Shown piece after piece: positions 1 to 7,344 of a stretch of 7,344 nt of DNA. Position numbers and translations under genes: made by a program. The notes beneath the pieces are model-generated. The model had not been told where the DNA came from. It worked only from the letters and a program-made list of their open reading frames with translations, and did not search any database. Each line of letters starts with the position of its first letter. Position 1 is the stretch's first letter. The stretch comes from a virus (lineage: Duplodnaviria > Heunggongvirae > Uroviricota > Caudoviricetes), in IMG/VR virus record IMGVR_UViG_2526164662_000048, positions 1 to 7,344 of that record. One strand, given 5' to 3'.

Positions 1-2208
1 GGCCGCACGCTGTGCGTCTTCGATTTTCTTGCGCGCCCTTTCCGCTTCATCCGGAAGCACACCGAGCTTTTCAAGTATCCACGCCAGCGTATCCAGCAAC
101 ATTTTTGCAGGTGTCAGAACAAGTTGTAACGCACCGCCAAGAACGTTACCGAATATCTCGCCAGCACTGGTACATTTATCCAGCGTTTCCTTGCTGGACT
201 CCATCGGTGACAGCAGCGATTTAAACCAGTTAAACACCTGGCTGATCCCGCTTCCGATTGCGTCAAAAACAGGACCAAACCGTTCAAAGGTTTCGCGCAA
301 CGGGGTCAGCCTTTCCATAATCCCGCTGAACACCCCGGCAAAAAATGCCCTGATGGGATCCCAGTATTTCCAGATAAGAACGGCAGCTCCGGCAAGCGCA
401 GCCACAATAAGACCAACCGGACTGAACAACGCCCCGATAGCGCCTCCCAGTAAAGAAACGGAACCCGTCACCATTCCCCATAGTGCTGGCAGGACCCTGA
501 CAGCATTCATTGATCCGGTCAGGAGAGAAAAACCAAGACGCAGTTTTGCCAGCGGACCAGCAAGCACACCAATAGCCAGCGACAACGAGCCAACCGTTGC
601 AGTCATTGCCAGCAACGCACCGCCTGCTATCAGTAGCTGGCGCGTCAGTGCCGGATGGGCCTGCGCCAGCGCCGTCACCCTTGATACCACCCGCGTGAGC
701 CACTGCGTGACAGAACGCAGCGGACCGTCAATCAGATCTGCAATGCGGATGCGCAACCCTTCCCATGCACTGCCGAGTGATTTCAGATCGCCGTCAAGGT
801 TGTTGGCCATAACCTTTGCTGTGCGTTCAGCCTCACCGCGCGCGCCTTCAAGTTCTTTTCTCAGTTTGGGTAAGGAACCGTCACCCGCTGCATCAACGAG
901 CGCCATAAACGATGTGAAAGCCTCTTCTCCGGCAATGTCCTTAAAGAACGATACCCGGTCAACTTCCCCGTATTTGCGGGTGGCTTTATAAAGGTCGGCC
1001 AGCACATCCTCCATCGGGCGCATTTTGCCCCCGGCATCCGAGACAGACACGCCCAGCTCTTTCAGCGCCTCTGCTGCCGCCTTTGGCGGTGATGCCAGAC
1101 GAGCCAGGCTGGCACGCATTGCCGTCCCGGCATCACTTCCCCTGATACCCATATTCGCCAGCACGCCCGCCATCGCTGCGGCCTGCTCCAGCGATATTCC
1201 CAGCTTGCCCGCCACCGGACCTGCATATTTCATGGTTTCGCCCAGTGCGCGTAAATCAGTATTGGTCCGGGTAAATGCTGCTGTCAGCGTATCGCCCACC
1301 CGGTCCATTTGATCGGCTGTCAGGTTGAACTGTGTGAGGATATTTGAGCCAATATCTGCCGTCTCGCCGAGATCCATACCGCCAGCCGTTGCCATGCTCA
1401 GCACGCCGGGAAGCGCAGCCTGAATGGCCTGCGGAGTGAAGCCAGCCATTGCAAGAAATGCCTGTCCACTGGCGGCATCGCCTGCGGTGAACTGCGTTTC
1501 AGAGCCAAGTTTTAACGCCTGCTCACGCAGCGCCTTAAACTGCGGGCTGTTCTGGTCGATTCGCGTCAGTGCCTGAACGCGGGACATCTCTTTGCCGAAC
1601 CCGATCGCAGGCTGCAAAAAACGCCCGGCAGCATAGCCGCTCGCCGCTGCCGCACCAATTGCCAGCGCACCACCTGTTTTCAGTTTTCCCGCGGTTTCCT
1701 GCGCGCGCGAATACCGCTCACGCGCCCGCGTTACACGCGCAAGCGCCTGCCGTTCGCGTTCAAGCTGGTTGTTGTACTGTTCGGTGCGTCTGATGGCCTG
1801 CTGGATGGTGTTATCGCTGCCTGTCAGGGAAATGCCGTGGCGTTTCAGCTCTCCGCCAATCTCCCGCATTTTCTGAATTTCCCGTGTGCGCGATTCATTC
1901 AGGCGTTCAAGCCGGGTGCTTAACTGCTGCATCAGCTTTTGTTGTTTTTCGCTGAGCACTGTACCCGTGCGTTGTAACTGATTAAGGGCGTTAAGCTGGC
2001 GTCGTGCTTTCACGATACCCGCATCCGCTTTACTGACAGCGTCGCGGGCGCGCTCAAATGAACGCGCCTGACGCTCGAGATTTTTGATCGCCCCCTGCGT
2101 TCGCTGGATGGAGTCACCAAACTGCCCCATCAGGCGGCGGGCGTTTTCGGCAGGCCGGGTCAGCCTGTCAACGGCGCTGAAAGCGACCCGGATATCAAGA
2201 GTCTTCAT
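1..2208 (-). CDS. T: Tail tape measure protein (P2 gpT-like), 3' end truncated by the window edge
   Basis: I scanned the minus-strand frame codon by codon: it is open for all 736 codons from the ATG at 2208..2206 to position 1, with no stop. N-terminus translates MKTLDIRVAFSAVDRLTRPAENARRLMGQFGDSIQRTQGAIKNLERQ, followed by a coiled-coil-like, Ala/Gly-rich body typical of tape measures. It sits directly downstream of E/E' as in P2 FETUD. An in-frame ATG at 2217..2215 is an alternative start. The plus-strand ORFs listed here are antisense artefacts. Confidence 0.85.
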   Translation of the reverse strand, partial: MKTLDIRVAFSAVDRLTRPAENARRLMGQFGDSIQRTQGAIKNLERQARSFERARDAVSKADAGIVKARRQLNALNQLQRTGTVLSEKQQKLMQQLSTRLERLNESRTREIQKMREIGGELKRHGISLTGSDNTIQQAIRRTEQYNNQLERERQALARVTRARERYSRAQETAGKLKTGGALAIGAAAASGYAAGRFLQPAIGFGKEMSRVQALTRIDQNSPQFKALREQALKLGSETQFTAGDAASGQAFLAMAGFTPQAIQAALPGVLSMATAGGMDLGETADIGSNILTQFNLTADQMDRVGDTLTAAFTRTNTDLRALGETMKYAGPVAGKLGISLEQAAAMAGVLANMGIRGSDAGTAMRASLARLASPPKAAAEALKELGVSVSDAGGKMRPMEDVLADLYKATRKYGEVDRVSFFKDIAGEEAFTSFMALVDAAGDGSLPKLRKELEGARGEAERTAKVMANNLDGDLKSLGSAWEGLRIRIADLIDGPLRSVTQWLTRVVSRVTALAQAHPALTRQLLIAGGALLAMTATVGSLSLAIGVLAGPLAKLRLGFSLLTGSMNAVRVLPALWGMVTGSVSLLGGAIGALFSPVGLIVAALAGAAVLIWKYWDPIRAFFAGVFSGIMERLTPLRETFERFGPVFDAIGSGISQVFNWFKSLLSPMESSKETLDKCTSAGEIFGNVLGGALQLVLTPAKMLLDTLAWILEKLGVLPDEAERARKKIEDAQRAA

Positions 2209-2297
2209 TGTCTGCATTCCCGCTGCGAAGTGCCGCCCGCTCACGCCAGCTAACCACTTCGCCGGGCGTCATCATGAAGATTTCGGCGGGCGACCAG

Positions 2298-2725
2298 TTA
2301 AAAATGGCGGCAATATCCGCCACCAAAGTCTTCTATGTGCTCAAAGCACACAAGGGTGATTACGCTGCCGTCTCCTGCACGCTCTTCGCGCCAGAGTCTG
2401 GCTCGCTCATAAAATTTACAGCCACTGCGCACAACTGAATAAAATCGCGTGACGACATTTTTTTGATCGTCACTTCATCCAGTCGCGGTGATGTCACGCG
2501 TGACAGCAGCGTAAACATGGATTCCGCTTTCAGATTCAGCACATCAGACAGCGACAGACCACGCAGAGATCCAGCCTGCTCAATAGCCCCGGTGATCTCC
2601 ACATACGTGATTTTTTCGCCGCCTCGCTCAATTGGTTGGGTCAGTTTTACGCCACGCTCACTGGTTTCTTTCACAGTGTCAGCAACTACCGTGTTTTCGG
2701 TATCGATGTTTTTCGTCTCTTTCAT
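2298..2725 (-). CDS. E+E' fusion made by a programmed -1 frameshift (predicted 142 aa: about 89 aa of E plus a 53-aa E' extension)
   Basis: On the minus strand a run of 7 A (plus 2458..2464) lies in the context ATC AAA AAA ATG. The -1 frame is closed by a TGA at 2477..2475 just upstream, then open for 53 codons (NVVTRFYSVVRSGCKFYERARLWREERAGDGSVITLVCFEHIEDFGGGYCRHF) to a TAA at 2300..2298. The predicted total of 142 aa matches what I recall for P2 gpE+E'. Confidence 0.6.
2360..2725 (-). CDS. E: Tail assembly chaperone (P2 gpE-like), zero-frame product of 121 aa
   Basis: ORF in the track; good SD (minus strand AAGGAG about 7 nt upstream of the ATG at 2725..2723). Small acidic protein located between tail tube and tape measure, the conserved position of the tail chaperone. 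Confidence 0.85.
   Translation of the reverse strand: MKETKNIDTENTVVADTVKETSERGVKLTQPIERGGEKITYVEITGAIEQAGSLRGLSLSDVLNLKAESMFTLLSRVTSPRLDEVTIKKMSSRDFIQLCAVAVNFMSEPDSGAKSVQETAA
2457..2465 (-). other. Candidate slippery site (A7 run) for the E/E' -1 frameshift
   Basis: It is the only homopolymeric or slippery sequence in the 16-nt interval where the zero and -1 frames are both open. tRNA-Lys re-pairing on AAA is a classic -1 slip. Confidence 0.5.
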
Positions 2726-2779
2726 CAGGAAACTCCTTTCAGTCAGAGGCGACGCACTGCGCCGCCTGCATATTACTTA

Positions 2780-3292
2780 TCAGCCAAGCCCAAGCGCGGA
2801 ACGGATGCGATCGGGCACAATGTCCTTGCCGTCCTTCCGGTAAATGAAGTTCAGCAGGTCAATCTCCCACAGCGGGCGATCGTTAACGCTCAGCTTGTAG
2901 TAGGTGTTTTTAACAGCGTAAGTGTGTGATGTGGCTTCGCCCTGTTTGGCTTCCCCCATATCAATTTCCGTCACACGTCCACGCATCTCGACTTCATACA
3001 GGTCGCTTTCTGCATCGGTGTAGTATTCACCCGCAAAACGCAGCAGCGTGCCGTCAATCGTGCCGCCATACTTAAGGAACAGCTCACGAACTGCGCCCCC
3101 CATGACAAAGCTCGCATCAAGCGCGGAGTCGTCCAGACCGAGATCAATACTTACCGCACCCATCATGCCACCACCACGATAGCTGTCGGTTTTGCGCGTC
3201 AGCTTAGGCAGAGTGACGGACGTCACCTTACCCACTTCGTTTTCACCATCCACAAACAGCGTAAAAAAGCGAAGATGTTTTGGCACAGCCAT
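2780..3292 (-). CDS. FII: Major tail tube protein (P2 gpFII-like), 170 aa
   Basis: ORF in the track. The protein (MAVPKHLRFFTLFVDGENEVGKVTSVTLPKLTRKTDSYRGGGMMGAVSIDLGLDD...) closely matches my recollection of the P2 FII family (LPKLTRK, YRG.GM, DLGLDD, MRGR..EID.GE.KQGE). Its start overlaps the FI stop (TGATG). Confidence 0.93.
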   Translation of the reverse strand: MAVPKHLRFFTLFVDGENEVGKVTSVTLPKLTRKTDSYRGGGMMGAVSIDLGLDDSALDASFVMGGAVRELFLKYGGTIDGTLLRFAGEYYTDAESDLYEVEMRGRVTEIDMGEAKQGEATSHTYAVKNTYYKLSVNDRPLWEIDLLNFIYRKDGKDIVPDRIRSALGLG

Positions 3293-4476
3293 CAGGCACC
3301 TCCCAGCACCGCAAATGCGGGTTCAAAGTATTCATCAGTAAACGTCTGGTAAAGCTCCATATCTTCCAGCGGCGGAACAGGCGTATATTTGTAGCGAATA
3401 CGCACACGCCCCTGACGTAAATCCGTGGTGCTGTTATCCACCACGTCATACCAGCACTCCGCGCCAATCAGTTTCCCGGCAGTAACCAGTGAATCCAGCT
3501 TTGCCCTGATGGCACTGATTACATCCTTCACGTTCGCAGGCGTCAGTGGACTGTCGATGGTTTCAAACTGCGCTTCCGCAATTGAATCAGCCAACACCTG
3601 TGCGGTTCGGGTATACACCTCAAAGATGTAGGCGTTCGTTTCCGGTGTGCGGTTGCCCCAGAAGCGGAACCCGTTGCGACGAATAATGGTCGTGATTTCT
3701 TTGTTGTTGAGGCTGTTGGCATCACTGTCTTCGGCCTGCAACGACCAGAACACATGCCTGGACATCCCCAGCACATTTTTAACCGGAACGTTGGACAGTG
3801 ATTTGTGCCACCCCTGCTCATGGTCAATGTACGCACGAAGGCCGCACGCATAGGCAGGCGCGGGGAACGTTTCGTTTTTGCCACTTTTCGGGTTGTAGGC
3901 GATGAAGTCCGGCCATAAGAGCATCACCTCACGTTCGTTGAATTTCTGGCGGTAGGTAATCGCCTCAGCCATCGTGTTACAGCCGTGACATGAGGCATAC
4001 ACAAACGCGCGCAGTTTACCCGCAATCACGCACAGGGATTTTGTCACCGCCTCCGTGTCCAGCTCCGGCGCGGCCAGAATACGCGGACGGTATCCGATGC
4101 TTTCATCCTGCTCTGCAACAAGCAGCGCATACATCCCCGTATAGCTGCCGTCATCCTCAGAACCACCGATAACCAGTTGATCCTGCGTCTTTCCGTCTTC
4201 TTCTTTGTGTTCAGCCACGCGAACGACGATCACCTTTGTGCTCACCTGGTCTGCGATGGCCTTAAGCGCACGATAAAGCGTCCCCGTTGTTCCGCATTTT
4301 CCCAGCACGTCATTGACGCGGGTCAGCAGTGTGGGCTTGTTCAGCGGGAACAGCTCCGCGTCCGCATCATCCGCCGTTGCCACGATACCGATAACACTGG
4401 AATCAACATCATTAATCGCTGTTACCAGGTCGGTACTTTCCGTAACACGGGCACCATGAAAACGAGTTTCACTCAT
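3292..4476 (-). CDS. FI: Contractile tail sheath protein (P2 gpFI-like), 394 aa
   Basis: ORF in the track. Sequence tracks P2 FI along its length as I recall it (DADAE.FPLNKP, LRAF.Y, WPDF, IDHEQGWHK.LSNV, RRNGFRFWGNRT, YTRTAQV, YKYTPVPPLE). SD AAGGGG about 8 nt upstream of the ATG at 4476..4474. Confidence 0.95.
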   Translation of the reverse strand: MSETRFHGARVTESTDLVTAINDVDSSVIGIVATADDADAELFPLNKPTLLTRVNDVLGKCGTTGTLYRALKAIADQVSTKVIVVRVAEHKEEDGKTQDQLVIGGSEDDGSYTGMYALLVAEQDESIGYRPRILAAPELDTEAVTKSLCVIAGKLRAFVYASCHGCNTMAEAITYRQKFNEREVMLLWPDFIAYNPKSGKNETFPAPAYACGLRAYIDHEQGWHKSLSNVPVKNVLGMSRHVFWSLQAEDSDANSLNNKEITTIIRRNGFRFWGNRTPETNAYIFEVYTRTAQVLADSIAEAQFETIDSPLTPANVKDVISAIRAKLDSLVTAGKLIGAECWYDVVDNSTTDLRQGRVRIRYKYTPVPPLEDMELYQTFTDEYFEPAFAVLGGA

Positions 4477-4633
4477 AGCTTCAGCCCCTTGTATCCGTTA
4501 AATGATTCGGCAACAATCATCACCCACCACGCGCGTAATCTCACTCCTGCGCCGTTCTCCCGCCACGGCGACAACAAAAAGCAGTAACCCCCTCCGCACG
4601 CACATGCGACCATGCCGCACAGGGAGGGAACAG
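4477..4633. promoter_or_regulatory. Divergent intergenic region between FI (leftward) and D (rightward); must hold promoters for both
   Basis: 157-bp non-coding gap between two divergent start codons, each with its own SD (AGGGAGGG 5 nt before the D ATG at 4634). I could not pick out convincing -35/-10 elements or a P2-type TGT-N12-ACA late-promoter dyad by eye. Confidence 0.4.
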
Positions 4634-5743
4634 ATGACCGACACCACCATGCAATTGCTCAGTCAGGGCACAGACCCCGTGAAAATGCCGGATTTTGATA
4701 TTCTCGCGGAGGGTAAAACGCTGTCAGGCGTGGCAGAGCGCCTGATGAGCCTGTCACTGACCGACAACCGGGGATTTGAGGCGGACCAGCTCACCATCAC
4801 GCTGGATGATGCGGATGGTCAGTTGCAGCTACCCCCACGGGGCGCGCGCCTGACGGTTCTCATTGGCTGGAAGGGAGAACCGCTGACAGAAAAAGGCACT
4901 TACATTGTTGATGAAATCGCTCACGAAGGACCGCCGGACAGGCTGACTGTTTCAGCCAGAAGCGCAGATTTTCGGGATGAATTTAACGTTAAACGTGAGG
5001 TGTCCTGGCATGATGTGACCCTTGAGCGTGTGGTATCCGCCATCGCTCATCGGTATGGTCTGAAACCACAAATCAGCGAAATGCTGATGGATATCGAAAT
5101 CGACCACGCCGACCAGACCGAAGAAAGCGACATGTCCTTCCTTACGCGCATGGCGGAAATGCTGGGCGCAATCACCACGGTAAAAAGCGGTAATCTGTTA
5201 TTCATCATGCCAGGTGGTGGCGTGAACGCACAGGGCCAGCCGTTGCCCTCGTTCGTCATTACACGCAGCAGCGGCGATCGCCATCAGTTCCGCATTGCTG
5301 ACCGCGAGGCGTATACGGGTGTACGCGCCTACTGGCTTGATCTTAATTACGGGAAAAAGAAAAAAGTCAGCGTGAAACGCCGCAAACCGCCAAAACCCAA
5401 AAAGGAGAAAAGCAGTAGCCGTGAAGGTGATTATATGGAAGGCGCAGAAGGCAATGTGTTTGTGTTACGCAAGACTTATCAGAACGAGCAGGCAGCAAGA
5501 CGCGCAGCGGCGGCAAAGTGGCAGCAGCTACAACGCGGAGCCGCAGCGTTCTCCATCACACTGGCACGTGGACGCGCAGAACTCTACCCCGAAATGCATG
5601 GCACGGTAACAGGATTTAAAAGCGAAATTGATAATCAGGACTGGATTATTGCAAAAGCCGAGCACACCATTGATAACAGTGGCTTTACCACGCAGCTTGA
5701 GCTTGAAGCCAAAATCCCGGAATGGATAGCAGAAACAGAGTAA
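4634..5743 (+). CDS. D: Tail protein D (P2 gpD, late control D family), 369 aa
   Basis: The track ORF 4502..5743 is trimmed to the ATG at 4634, which has a strong SD. The protein matches the gpD family as I recall it (SLTDNRGFEADQL, GWKG, RSADFR, SWHD, FLTR.AE, ITRS.GDRH.F.IADR.AYTG, lysine-rich KKKKVSVKRRKPPKPKKEK stretch, NSGFTT.LELE). Confidence 0.9.
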   Translation: MTDTTMQLLSQGTDPVKMPDFDILAEGKTLSGVAERLMSLSLTDNRGFEADQLTITLDDADGQLQLPPRGARLTVLIGWKGEPLTEKGTYIVDEIAHEGPPDRLTVSARSADFRDEFNVKREVSWHDVTLERVVSAIAHRYGLKPQISEMLMDIEIDHADQTEESDMSFLTRMAEMLGAITTVKSGNLLFIMPGGGVNAQGQPLPSFVITRSSGDRHQFRIADREAYTGVRAYWLDLNYGKKKKVSVKRRKPPKPKKEKSSSREGDYMEGAEGNVFVLRKTYQNEQAARRAAAAKWQQLQRGAAAFSITLARGRAELYPEMHGTVTGFKSEIDNQDWIIAKAEHTIDNSGFTTQLELEAKIPEWIAETE

Positions 5744-5937
5744 ACAACTTAGATGCATTAGCCCTGACATTTGCTAACGCGCTTACAGCAAGAATCATAA
5801 CCAATCTGACAGCCTACCCGGTGTCAAAATCAGAAGAGCCTTACATTAGAATATGTTAATTTGTAGCAAACAAATTTACACACAAATGATTACTGCTGAA
5901 ATAGCCCCCATAAATACCATGTCAAAGGATCCATGTT

Positions 5938-6603
5938 ATGAATATGCAAATTTTTATCGCACCAGCAGCCACAGTTGCTGCAGTCTGCCTTGCTGCATAT
6001 TTTGCTTTACGAAATGAACGTAAAAAGAAAGCACTTGAGATTAGAACAACTCAACTAGATCGAATATCAGAGCTAGTAAACCGAGCATCTACCAATTTGA
6101 TGCAATATACAGGTACTCTTGCCTCTATACTGGAAGCGCACGCCAAAGATAATTATCTACCGAACAAAAAATTTGACATTAATGTAATTAGCAAATGGAA
6201 AGATTGCCTCGATGAGAGTGAGGTCTGGGCGATTGATAGACAGCAACTAAGAACATGTCAGCACAGTCTGGAGTTTCATCGTGAAAAAGAATGGGCTGAA
6301 TGGAAAAAAATAATTCCACCATTACTTGATAAAATTGACCAATTTTTTCTCATATCTAAGCCAGGGCAACCTGTTACGTTTATAAATGGCCAAAACAAAA
6401 CAGCTGATGAACTACTTGTTTTCTCAAGATATTTGAGAAAACAAACAGCAGAAATTGAATCAGTACGTCAGCTGTTACTTTCTCAAATGAGAGAGGAATT
6501 CATCGAGTTAACTAGCTTTGAACCTGTCACAATGTTTAGCTTATTTAAATCAATAAAGAAAAATGTCATGCAATTTTTCTGTATCAGTGCTCTTAAAAAT
6601 TGA
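5938..6603 (+). CDS. Hypothetical membrane-anchored cargo (moron) protein, 221 aa, function unknown
   Basis: ORF in the track with SD AAAGGA 8 nt upstream. N-terminal hydrophobic helix (IFIAPAATVAAVCLAAYFAL) followed by RNERKKK, then a charged, probably helical soluble region. Hand counts of sample lines give roughly 25 to 45 percent GC here versus roughly 57 percent in the tail genes. Followed by a hairpin terminator. I recognise no family. Confidence 0.7.
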   Translation: MNMQIFIAPAATVAAVCLAAYFALRNERKKKALEIRTTQLDRISELVNRASTNLMQYTGTLASILEAHAKDNYLPNKKFDINVISKWKDCLDESEVWAIDRQQLRTCQHSLEFHREKEWAEWKKIIPPLLDKIDQFFLISKPGQPVTFINGQNKTADELLVFSRYLRKQTAEIESVRQLLLSQMREEFIELTSFEPVTMFSLFKSIKKNVMQFFCISALKN

Positions 6604-6618
6604 CGCTCTGTTGCAAGC

Positions 6619-6647
6619 AACCCCAGTGTTAAACTGGGGTTATTCTT
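6619..6647 (+). terminator. Putative rho-independent terminator of the cargo gene
   Basis: Perfect 9-bp stem AACCCCAGT (6619..6627) / ACTGGGGTT (6633..6641) with a 5-nt loop GTTAA, followed by the T-rich ATTCTT, 15 nt after the cargo stop codon. Confidence 0.5.
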
Positions 6648-6752
6648 GCTAAGAGACCTTTCTACGGCATCAGTAAACAAAACGAACTATCAGTTGGAGT
6701 CTGAGCAAGTTCAGCCTAAACTAGCGACAGCACTACGTTAAGGGAGGTCGCT

Positions 6753-7013
6753 ATGTTCCGTTGTCCGCTTTGTGGCGCATCTGCCCGTATCCGCACCAGT
6801 CGTCCGGAAAATGATTCAAACACCGTGCGGCAAAAGTATTACCAGTGTAACAACCTGGAATGCGGCGTATGCTTCTCAACACTGGAAGCTTTCCATAAAT
6901 TCACATCGAAACACGCCTCCGGCATCCACTCTTCAGAAGATATCCCGTGGCATGAGCTGCCAGCTTCACACAGGGGAAACAATCAGATGAGCTTGCCTTT
7001 ACCTCAGAATTAA
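6753..7013 (+). CDS. ogr: Ogr/Delta-family zinc-finger late transcription activator, 86 aa
   Basis: MFRCPLCGASARIRTSR...QKYYQCNNLECGVCFSTLEAF matches the Ogr signature (MFHCPLC...ARTSR...RYHQC.N..C...F, with Cys-X2-Cys ... Cys-X4-Cys). Strong SD AAGGGAGG 6 nt upstream. Position just downstream of D matches P2. Confidence 0.88.
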   Translation: MFRCPLCGASARIRTSRPENDSNTVRQKYYQCNNLECGVCFSTLEAFHKFTSKHASGIHSSEDIPWHELPASHRGNNQMSLPLPQN

Positions 7014-7022
7014 CAGGCAGAA

Positions 7023-7051
7023 TTGCCGGAGTAACAAAAAAGCGATAGATT
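7023..7051 (+). promoter_or_regulatory. Candidate sigma70 promoter for the hok/mok-like transcript (TTGCCG-17 bp-TAGATT)
   Basis: -35-like TTGCCG at 7023..7028 and -10-like TAGATT at 7046..7051 with a 17-bp spacer, about 25 bp upstream of the Mok-like ATG. Hexamer matches are partial (4/6 each), so this is tentative. Confidence 0.25.
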
Positions 7052-7073
7052 ACGCGCGGGTGCCTTTCGGCTG

Positions 7074-7286
7074 ATGGTCGGAGGGAATACCCGAAGGCCA
7101 GATGTGGAAAGGCCCCGGAAAACATCTCTGTTTAACCGAGGCCCTAACCGCATTACCTTGACAAGTGAAAGGTTAGCGCCTCTCCGGAAAAGGAGCAAGT
7201 GCTATGTCGCAAAAATCGCTTACGGCCATCACGTTCTGCGTGACGGCAATCCTCATCATCTGGATGTTGCACGGTTCGCTGTGTGA
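7074..7286 (+). CDS. Mok-like overlapping reading frame (70 codons) upstream of and overlapping the hok-like ORF
   Basis: 70-aa ORF in the track, in a different frame from the toxin ORF, starting 130 nt upstream of it and ending inside it. This is the mok/hok overlap architecture. The product is basic and low-complexity, as expected for a frame used for translational coupling rather than for its protein. Confidence 0.4.
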   Translation: MVGGNTRRPDVERPRKTSLFNRGPNRITLTSERLAPLRKRSKCYVAKIAYGHHVLRDGNPHHLDVARFAV

Positions 7287-7344
7287 AATACGGATGAGCT
7301 TCTGGGGAGCGGAGTTTGCGGCGTTCTTACAGTGTAAGCAGTAA
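7204..7344 (+). CDS. hok: Hok/Gef-family type I toxin, 46 aa
   Basis: Translates MSQKSLTAITFCVTAILIIWMLHGSLCEIRMSFWGAEFAAFLQCKQ: a single TM helix, then the SLCEIR motif and an E(F/V)AAF motif shared with Hok of plasmid R1 (..RKSLCEIRYRDGHREVAAF..). SD AGGAG 8 nt upstream. The stop codon is the last three bases of the window. The ORF is below the 60-aa cut-off of the supplied track. Confidence 0.6.
   Translation: MSQKSLTAITFCVTAILIIWMLHGSLCEIRMSFWGAEFAAFLQCKQ

Follow-up and report, generated by a model that had tools for sequence, protein, structure and literature searches.

The window analysed here, a stretch of 7,344 nucleotides (nt) that makes up positions 1 to 7,344 of IMG/VR virus record IMGVR_UViG_2526164662_000048, forms the right-hand terminus of a prophage of the P2 family whose closest phages are P88-like (Xuanwuvirus, Peduoviridae). 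Between the stop codon of its tail gene D (5741-5743) and the ATG of the late-gene activator gene ogr (6753) lies an interval of 1009 nt (5744-6752, which abuts both of these codons) with a GC content of 0.381, compared to 0.547 in the rest of the window, the fall beginning directly 3' of the D stop. The interval contains a single long open reading frame (5938-6603, plus strand) for a protein of 221 amino acids (aa), WP_001057122.1, which is the product of the published anti-phage gene DS-43. An initial annotation of the stretch, made from its letters alone, had described an AT-rich insert of about 1 kb, with a sharp drop in GC right after D, between two genes that are nearly adjacent in P2. 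Both the insert and the adjacency are borne out, as D and ogr are 81 nt apart in P2 itself, where the gap contains the annotated ogr promoter, and 38-42 nt apart in empty P88-like sites. The description of the host element as P2-like holds at the level of the P2 family, but the prophage is P88-like (Xuanwuvirus) and not P2 proper.

The 1009-nt interval is 100% identical to a sequence of E. coli O55:H7 CB9615, where it belongs to a P2-like prophage adjoining ihfA/pheT and where the reading frame is annotated as the hypothetical protein WP_001057122.1. DNA of the insert is present in 58 of 5426 complete E. coli genomes and is chromosomal every time. In two of the complete genomes, those of E. 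coli strains AR_0128 (NZ_CP021722.1) and AR_0118 (NZ_CP020048.1), an IS1A splits the DS-43 gene, and in phage 520873 (locus L004, 2104-2502) the gene is fragmented, with D split too; these are inactivated copies or assembly errors.

The insert and the published identity of its gene

Relative to the empty sites of sister phages the insertion is precise. An empty site holds only one copy of a short junction repeat (GCAACTTAGA, then ATAGCG), and the gap between D and ogr does not exceed 42 nt in Chuche, P88, P884B11, Shae_phiSM and PhiR44_2, all of which lack the low-GC cargo cassette of ~968 nt found in the window at 5754-6721. All of the features of the insert described here lie on the plus strand. 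The cassette is preceded by the left repeat copy, ACAACTTAGA (5744-5753), and its last ten bases (6712-6721) are a degenerate right copy, which reads CAGCCTAAAC here and ACAACTTAGA in most other cassettes. It opens with a leader (5754-5850) and closes with a trailer (6691-6722, CAGTTGGAGTCTGAGC...), in which TTGGAG (6694-6699) is separated by a spacer of 17 nt from TAAACT (6717-6722).

Upstream of the gene, a block of ~50 nt at 5845-5895 is the best candidate for the native promoter. It is near-identical in the Kluyvera copies of the gene and is better kept between E. coli and Kluyvera than the coding sequence, which is ~77% identical, within a region of homology that extends from ~100-140 nt 5' of the ATG to just beyond the stop codon. 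The block is probably a promoter or operator. It holds a small inverted repeat (5854-5864 and 5870-5880). A sigma-70 scan of 5744-5937 returned no site and the candidates picked manually all had 8/12 matches or worse. Since a cloned fragment covering 5744-6703 is active, a promoter must nevertheless lie within 5744-5937 and work without prophage factors.

The coding sequence (5938-6603) is preceded by a Shine-Dalgarno sequence, AAGGA (5925-5929), 8 nt before the ATG, and both this and the 221-aa reading frame are as they had been annotated. It is followed by a hairpin (6606-6655) with a terminator-like core at 6619-6641, which had been read as a clean terminator. The hairpin stands, with a 9-bp stem and an extended fold of -26.7 kcal/mol (z = -5.2, with 0 of 200 shuffles as good), but it is not clean, the T-tract being weak (ATTCTTGCTA). 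It is not shared with the Kluyvera copies. An Rfam scan found nothing within the insert.

The gene is that of construct D668, or DS-43, of DeWeirdt et al. (DefensePredictor, Science 2026; PMC13092281; preprint 10.1101/2025.01.08.631726, January 2025). D668 was taken from ECOR assembly GCF_003333565.1 and is listed in Table S6 with a log-odds of 4.94, defensive = TRUE and the label 'Structural defense homolog' (PMC13092281). Translating positions 5938-6600 of the window gives exactly the sequence of Table S8, and the D668 primers in Table S11 map to 5744-5768 and 6673-6703, so that the tested fragment is 5744-6703 (PMC13092281). It is the same gene with an identical protein, and nothing differs between the two.

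In the published assay the fragment was carried by MG1655 on a low-copy plasmid with its own upstream region, and the -log10 efficiency of plating given in Table S7 is 6.34 for Bas19, 5.11 for SECphi18, 5.0 for Bas1, 5.0 for Bas3, 4.78 for Bas9 and 0.52, with smaller plaques, for Bas11; no further phage is given for D668 in this table, which lists hits only (PMC13092281). The initial annotation had suggested an anti-phage function and had proposed a plaque assay with the native upstream region. This experiment was already in print and protection was seen, the fragment cutting the plating of five siphoviruses by 10^4.8 to 10^6.3 (PMC13092281). Taxonomically, Bas01 belongs to the Drexlerviridae, Bas19 to Nonagvirus (Queuovirinae) and SECphi18 to Dhillonvirus. 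Bas3, Bas9 and Bas11, from the BASEL collection, are presumably Drexlerviridae. The cassette, driven by its native upstream region, is enough by itself to protect E. coli K-12 from siphoviruses belonging to three groups (PMC13092281).

The 221-aa protein is almost certainly the product of an anti-phage defence gene, and this finding is already known, the gene having been validated as DS-43 in a known kind of prophage hotspot. It is very improbable that DS-43 is not a dedicated defence gene and that the plaque effect is a by-product of a membrane protein expressed from a plasmid, arising from envelope stress or an altered receptor or energy state; its natural role would then lie elsewhere, for example in lysogenic conversion or the timing of phage lysis. 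Such a side effect sits badly with a low-copy vector and the native upstream region, with a response that is phage-specific and very large (at least 10^4.8 for five phages, with Bas11 almost unaffected) and with genomic contexts that are those of defence cargo, even if the supplement holds one plating experiment per phage, the log-odds of 4.94 is modest and DS-43 goes undiscussed in the main text of the paper (PMC13092281).

That main text mentions neither DS-43 nor Csx28 and gives no mechanism, and the paper is without a hotspot description or family analysis for DS-43 (PMC13092281). A search for the accession WP_001057122.1 gave no full-text literature match, and it was found in the supplementary tables of PMC13092281. 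As the anti-phage question posed by this moron has been answered experimentally and published, its discovery value is low. The cassette anatomy, comprising leader, trailer and flanking repeat, goes beyond the published DS-43 work.

The D-ogr junction as a defence hotspot

A tabulation of the D-ogr gap across relatives, as the initial annotation had advised, was made at 85 Ogr-anchored loci, of which 84 were scorable. These comprise 80 IMG/VR loci with an Ogr at least 97% identical, and 5 loci from species-representative genomes (Ogr 63-98% identical), 4 of which were scored. The junction is empty in 35 of the 84, holds the DS-43 gene in 7 and is occupied in 42 by 14 other, unrelated inserts of 1.1-3.5 kb. 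All 15 cargo types are low in GC (0.33-0.43), with sizes of 1.0-3.5 kb overall. Because 14 other low-GC cargos, defence genes among them, alternate there and empty sites are found as well, the junction is a true hotspot for defence genes in P88-like prophages. DS-43 had been viewed as horizontally acquired single-gene cargo, and the precise insertion relative to empty sister sites and the nature of the junction agree with this.

The hotspot is mostly filled by recognisable defence genes. The cargos include a PifA-like KAP nucleoside triphosphatase (NTPase; PADLOC E 2.6e-64), a PDC-S31/DUF2971 protein (E 3.7e-27), a GmrSD-like protein with GmrSD_N and HNH domains, two PIN-domain proteins (PIN_4 and PIN_12), a protein with a weak match to HEPN_RiboL-PSP and a PsyrT-like phosphoribosyltransferase (PRTase) pair, and further cargos are a SEC-C protein, an alpha/beta hydrolase and several unannotated proteins. 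The alternative cargos are represented by locus L002 (phage 500465-2; 2065-3087, minus strand) and by 13 other types at loci L023-L099. About half of them are without a PADLOC match, among them the 500-aa PIN_4 and 356-aa PIN_12 proteins, proteins of 386, 478 and 274 aa, a 932 + 120-aa pair and a 188 + 134-aa pair, and these are candidate new defence genes. The junction is a compact and precisely bounded hotspot and, with around half of the cargo types as yet lacking an annotation, a cheap source of candidate defence genes.

The cassettes share their ends. The leader, diverged yet alignable, is common to nearly all of the 15 cargo types, whatever the cargo or its strand, with a consensus over ~100 nt of TAGATGCATTAGCTCAGAC...CTTACAGCACAGAACCAAACCTAATCTGACAG..., and the trailer, whose consensus over ~50 nt is CTGTCAGTTGGAGTCTGAGCcAGTACAACTTAGA, is kept in all of them. 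At the right end the cassettes repeat (G/A)CAACTTAGA, a sequence that is single in the empty site (loci L021-L100), and they are therefore flanked by a 9-10-nt direct repeat. Trailer and junction together read TTGGAG-17 nt-TAGAAT, ~30 nt before the ogr ATG, with TAGAAT found in most other cassettes and in the empty site at the position where the window has TAAACT (TTGGAG-17-TAAACT, 6694-6722). We infer that the -35 element of a candidate ogr promoter lies on the trailer, which would explain why the trailer is conserved, as a cargo that brings its own hairpin would otherwise keep transcription from upstream from reaching ogr.

Two types of cassette end were considered and rejected. Terminal inverted repeats are not a general feature, being significant in only 3 of the 15 cassettes and not in that of the window; the few that have them are L045 (29 nt, p about 0.03), L039 and L095. 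Integron attC-type ends were looked for by eye and no GTTRRRY/RYYYAAC cores were seen at the junctions. On account of the 9-10-nt direct repeat, the conserved leader and trailer and the putative ogr promoter on the trailer, it may be that a dedicated, site-specific process moves the cassettes, and not homologous recombination in the flanks. The forward primers for PIN8/DS-3 and GNAT/DS-33 in Table S11 of PMC13092281 resemble the cassette leader (ccgctttgtgccagaagcggac; ...gtgcattagttcagatg), which hints that DS-3 and DS-33 come from homologous hotspot cassettes; neither primer has an exact match in the 107 loci that were fetched.

Hotspots of P2-like prophages have been described at gpA-gpQ (old/tin) and at Z/fun (Rousset et al. 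2022, PMC9122126), and the iLund4u preprint (10.1101/2024.10.15.618418) refers to a 'third hotspot between a tail protein and CI'. The D-ogr junction is a hotspot of this known kind, as all of these sites hold variable low-GC anti-phage cargo between core genes of the P2 family. Unlike the other sites, D-ogr is a one-cassette site with a flanking repeat of 9-10 nt and a conserved leader and trailer. As for the classic P2 defence proteins, DS-43 has no PADLOC, Pfam or PHROG match to Old, Tin or Fun, and its position is D-ogr, not gpA-gpQ or Z/fun.

Elsewhere, homologues of DS-43 are always single genes in mobile defence contexts. A copy with 85% identity occupies the same D-ogr site in a P88-like prophage at another attachment site, and a Kluyvera copy with 73% identity is found in a lambdoid prophage, adjoining a colicin-like gene, and also in an integrase island with a retron-like reverse transcriptase, a TIR protein and a 1207-aa helicase. 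Amongst the distant members, one lies beside an integrase and a SNIPE nuclease, another directly 3' of an integrase and a further one adjoins Gabija GajA/GajB. Other homologues are located in an smpB-adjacent island with a KAP NTPase and in an integrative and conjugative element (ICE), where the gene adjoins HipA and a McrA-like HNH protein.

The DS-43 protein and its possible mode of action

When 1.84 billion cluster representatives were searched exhaustively with a profile, only 23 matched, and word-indexed profile searches added the rest of a family of ~45 homologous protein clusters, extending down to ~20% identity. Length and architecture are kept throughout, and the reading frame is therefore a real gene. 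The named hosts are Escherichia, Kluyvera, Klebsiella, Citrobacter, Salmonella and Pseudescherichia, and the homologues are all annotated as hypothetical, none with a Pfam domain. Scans of the protein against Pfam, PHROGs, NCBIfam and PADLOC gave only noise, as did PADLOC and Pfam scans of all 34 members of the family alignment; two profiles found no match in the PDB sequence library, Foldseek found none at E<=0.001 amongst the viral structures of BFVD, and the last profile search, at E<=10, returned family members only. The initial description of the protein as unrecognised holds with respect to the sequence libraries, but not with respect to the literature, where it has appeared under the name DS-43 and is noted as structurally homologous to Csx28.

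On the Kyte-Doolittle scale a single 19-aa segment is strongly hydrophobic, that from residue 5 onwards (residues 5-23; 2.11). It corresponds to a single N-terminal transmembrane helix at residues 5-24 (codons 5950-6009, plus strand), which is followed by a basic juxtamembrane sequence, RNERKKKALE; Table S8 places the transmembrane segment at residues 1-23 and a coiled coil at 158-184 (PMC13092281). Lysine plus arginine residues are more numerous after the helix than before it in all 34 family members (mean 4.8 against 1.1), and the N-terminus is therefore predicted to be outside and the C-terminal domain cytoplasmic. An AlphaFold2 model built with 34 sequences (predicted local distance difference test, pLDDT, 89; predicted template-modelling score, pTM, 0.73) has a helix at 4-71, in which the membrane helix runs into the first bundle helix, then the other three helices of the bundle and, at the C-terminus, a helix at 199-219. 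The protein is thus predicted to have an N-out/C-in orientation in the membrane, an up-down bundle of four helices in the cytoplasm and an amphipathic helix at its C-terminus. One N-terminal membrane helix with a cytoplasmic helical domain is what the initial annotation had proposed, and the hydrophobicity peak, the positive-inside bias in 34 of 34 members and the model all concur.

Seven residues are invariant in the 34-sequence alignment: P9, A20, L24, K30, K31, H114 and W122. The best-conserved segment consists of the membrane helix and an L-R-N-E-x-x-K-K-x-L-E collar, and the invariant residues within it imply that the helix and basic collar are more than a passive anchor. A second conserved motif, L-x-F-H-R, includes H114, and its arginine, R115, is present in 30 of the 34 members.

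DefensePredictor classes DS-43 as a structural homologue of Csx28, a Cas13b-associated membrane pore (PMC13092281). Csx28, at 177 aa, has one membrane helix at its N-terminus and a bundle of four helices in the cytoplasm. It assembles into an octameric pore and, once Cas13b has been activated, depolarises the membrane; on its own it provides no defence (10.1101/2021.11.02.466367). This type VI-B2 CRISPR accessory protein (PDB 8GI1) and DS-43 have in common the lone transmembrane helix at the N-terminus and, going by the DS-43 model, the four-helix bundle in the cytoplasm, both are small (177 and 221 aa) and both are antiviral. Unlike Csx28, DS-43 has a predicted extra C-terminal amphipathic helix, and DS-43 acts by itself, which Csx28 does not. 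Neither the window nor the 41 kb around it contains a cas gene or a CRISPR array. A UniRef entry names the DS-43 protein 'DUF4760 domain-containing', a label that UniRef also gives to Csx28.

Csx28 was first predicted to be a divergent HEPN protein (10.1101/2021.11.02.466367), and HEPN domains are four-helix bundles. DS-43 might accordingly be considered as a membrane-tethered, divergent HEPN-type ribonuclease or nucleic-acid binder, whose degenerate bundle would cleave or sequester RNA upon infection, with the invariant H114, together with R115, being catalytic or RNA-binding. The conservation of these two residues fits this idea, and a different cargo of the junction has a weak HEPN_RiboL-PSP match. 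A motif check found neither a Walker A nor an R-x4-6-H in the 221-aa protein, as had been annotated, and an R-x4-6-H of any kind occurs in 16 of the 34 members, at no conserved column. No member has a Pfam or PADLOC HEPN match, and the HEPN-like interface of Csx28 is in a nuclease-inactive arrangement (10.1101/2021.11.02.466367). As the family lacks a conserved R-x4-6-H, a HEPN-type ribonuclease is improbable.

The mechanism preferred here, in view of the Csx28 body plan, the shared DUF4760 labels and the conserved helix and collar, is that of a stand-alone Csx28-like effector. DS-43 would reside in the inner membrane as an inactive oligomer, and either the cytoplasmic bundle or the membrane helix itself would sense infection by a sensitive phage. 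The helices would then form or open a pore, leading to depolarisation of the membrane, a halt in metabolism and abortion of phage production. By analogy with Csx28, abortive infection through such a pore is proposed tentatively and is judged slightly more apt to be wrong than right. Taken as a whole, the best explanation, that of a single-gene defence cassette at D-ogr whose product is DS-43 with a stand-alone Csx28-like mechanism, is given an even chance. Other single-gene or small membrane effectors of abortive-infection systems, lambda RexB and the transmembrane effectors of CBASS, Pycsar and retron systems, are inserted in the membrane and are believed to collapse its potential on infection. 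These proteins are not known to be homologous to DS-43 and work with a separate sensor or signal, whereas DS-43 is without a partner gene.

A number of points weigh against a Csx28-like pore. The resemblance to Csx28 is weak evidence, because no sequence link could be reproduced, four-helix bundles are ubiquitous and DS-43 needs no Cas13b. Pfam DUF4760 matches none of the 34 members at E<=10, so that the UniRef name is not reproduced, although this test is insensitive, since hmmscan also misses the Csx28-like DS-13A that served as positive control. A family-profile search of PDB sequences did not find 8GI1, and hhalign gave a probability of 0.8% for the family against DS-13A. The link in the source paper is itself weak, the best known-defence match in Table S8 being Prevotella buccae Csx28 with a coverage of 17% and a probability of 55.7 (HHblits/HHpred; PMC13092281). 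The four-helix bundle is a very common fold. Moreover, Csx28 requires Cas13b and DS-43 works without it, hence a sensing step has to be postulated (10.1101/2021.11.02.466367; PMC13092281). Finally, a 10^5-fold drop in plating without plaques fits exclusion equally well.

Superinfection exclusion at DNA entry is the main rival, and is itself rather unlikely. Here DS-43 would block genome delivery of the sensitive siphoviruses at the inner membrane and leave the cell unharmed, and its conserved membrane helix could disturb the tape-measure/ejection channel or a host inner-membrane factor for DNA entry. DS-43 is prophage-encoded, constitutively expressed, small and anchored in the inner membrane, and the membrane helix is its most conserved region. 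Furthermore, the protection, at 10^5-10^6, is very high, and the phages recorded as affected are all siphoviruses, from three groups with no other relationship, which suggests a shared entry step, not a shared cytoplasmic trigger. T4 Imm, P22 SieA and HK97 gp15 are inner-membrane superinfection-exclusion proteins, and like DS-43 they are small, encoded by phages or prophages, and guard against other phages. Unlike them, DS-43 has its mass in the cytoplasm: only ~4 of its residues are predicted to face the periplasm. No sequence or profile similarity links DS-43 to these proteins or to other known exclusion proteins of PHROGs, Pfam or PADLOC. Homologues also occur outside prophages, in an ICE and in defence islands of the chromosome, a distribution more usual for general defence genes, and Table S7, which lists hits only, has no entry for the siphoviruses lambda and T5.

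If the resemblance to Csx28 is true, DS-43 would show the pore class working without CRISPR. A wider proposal is that DS-43 and its ~45 enterobacterial relatives are free-living members of the Csx28 structural class. The 221-aa protein could then both sense diverse siphoviruses and form the pore, and the CRISPR-associated Csx28 would be a domesticated member that has lost its own sensor. Jointly, this proposal and the separate one of site-specific movement of the D-ogr cassettes are doubtful. The family analysis sets up a clear contrast between pore-forming abortive infection and DNA-entry exclusion, and it provides the seven invariant residues, P9, A20, L24, K30, K31, H114 and W122, along with the conserved membrane helix and the predicted cytoplasmic bundle, as targets for mutagenesis.

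Neighbouring genes of the window

To the left of the insert, the tail/baseplate gene D (gpD; 4634-5743, plus strand) is recognised by Pfam Phage_GPD (E 2.7e-16). The mechanical reading frame starts at 4502 and sister phages annotate a 369-aa form whose start is equivalent to 4634. Further left, and all on the minus strand, are the sheath gene (3292-4476), the tube gene (2780-3292), a tail chaperone gene and the tape-measure gene, the last annotated on the identical CB9615 locus. The strands change at 4476-4634, with D, ogr and hok lying opposite to sheath, tube and tape measure, and transcription of D diverges from that of FI. All of the genes from FI through D lie on one strand in P2.

To the right, ogr (6753-7013, plus strand) encodes the zinc-finger activator and is recognised by Pfam Ogr_Delta (E 5e-14). 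It is followed by a hok/gef reading frame (7204-7344, plus strand; Pfam HOK_GEF, E 4e-7; MokW-like in PHROG) and by an Rfam sok match at 7058-7217 (plus strand), which at 48 bits is under the gathering score of 59. This hok/sok-type toxin-antitoxin module 3' of ogr (7058-7344) is a second moron before the end of the prophage, and it is also present in sister phages in which the D-ogr site is empty.

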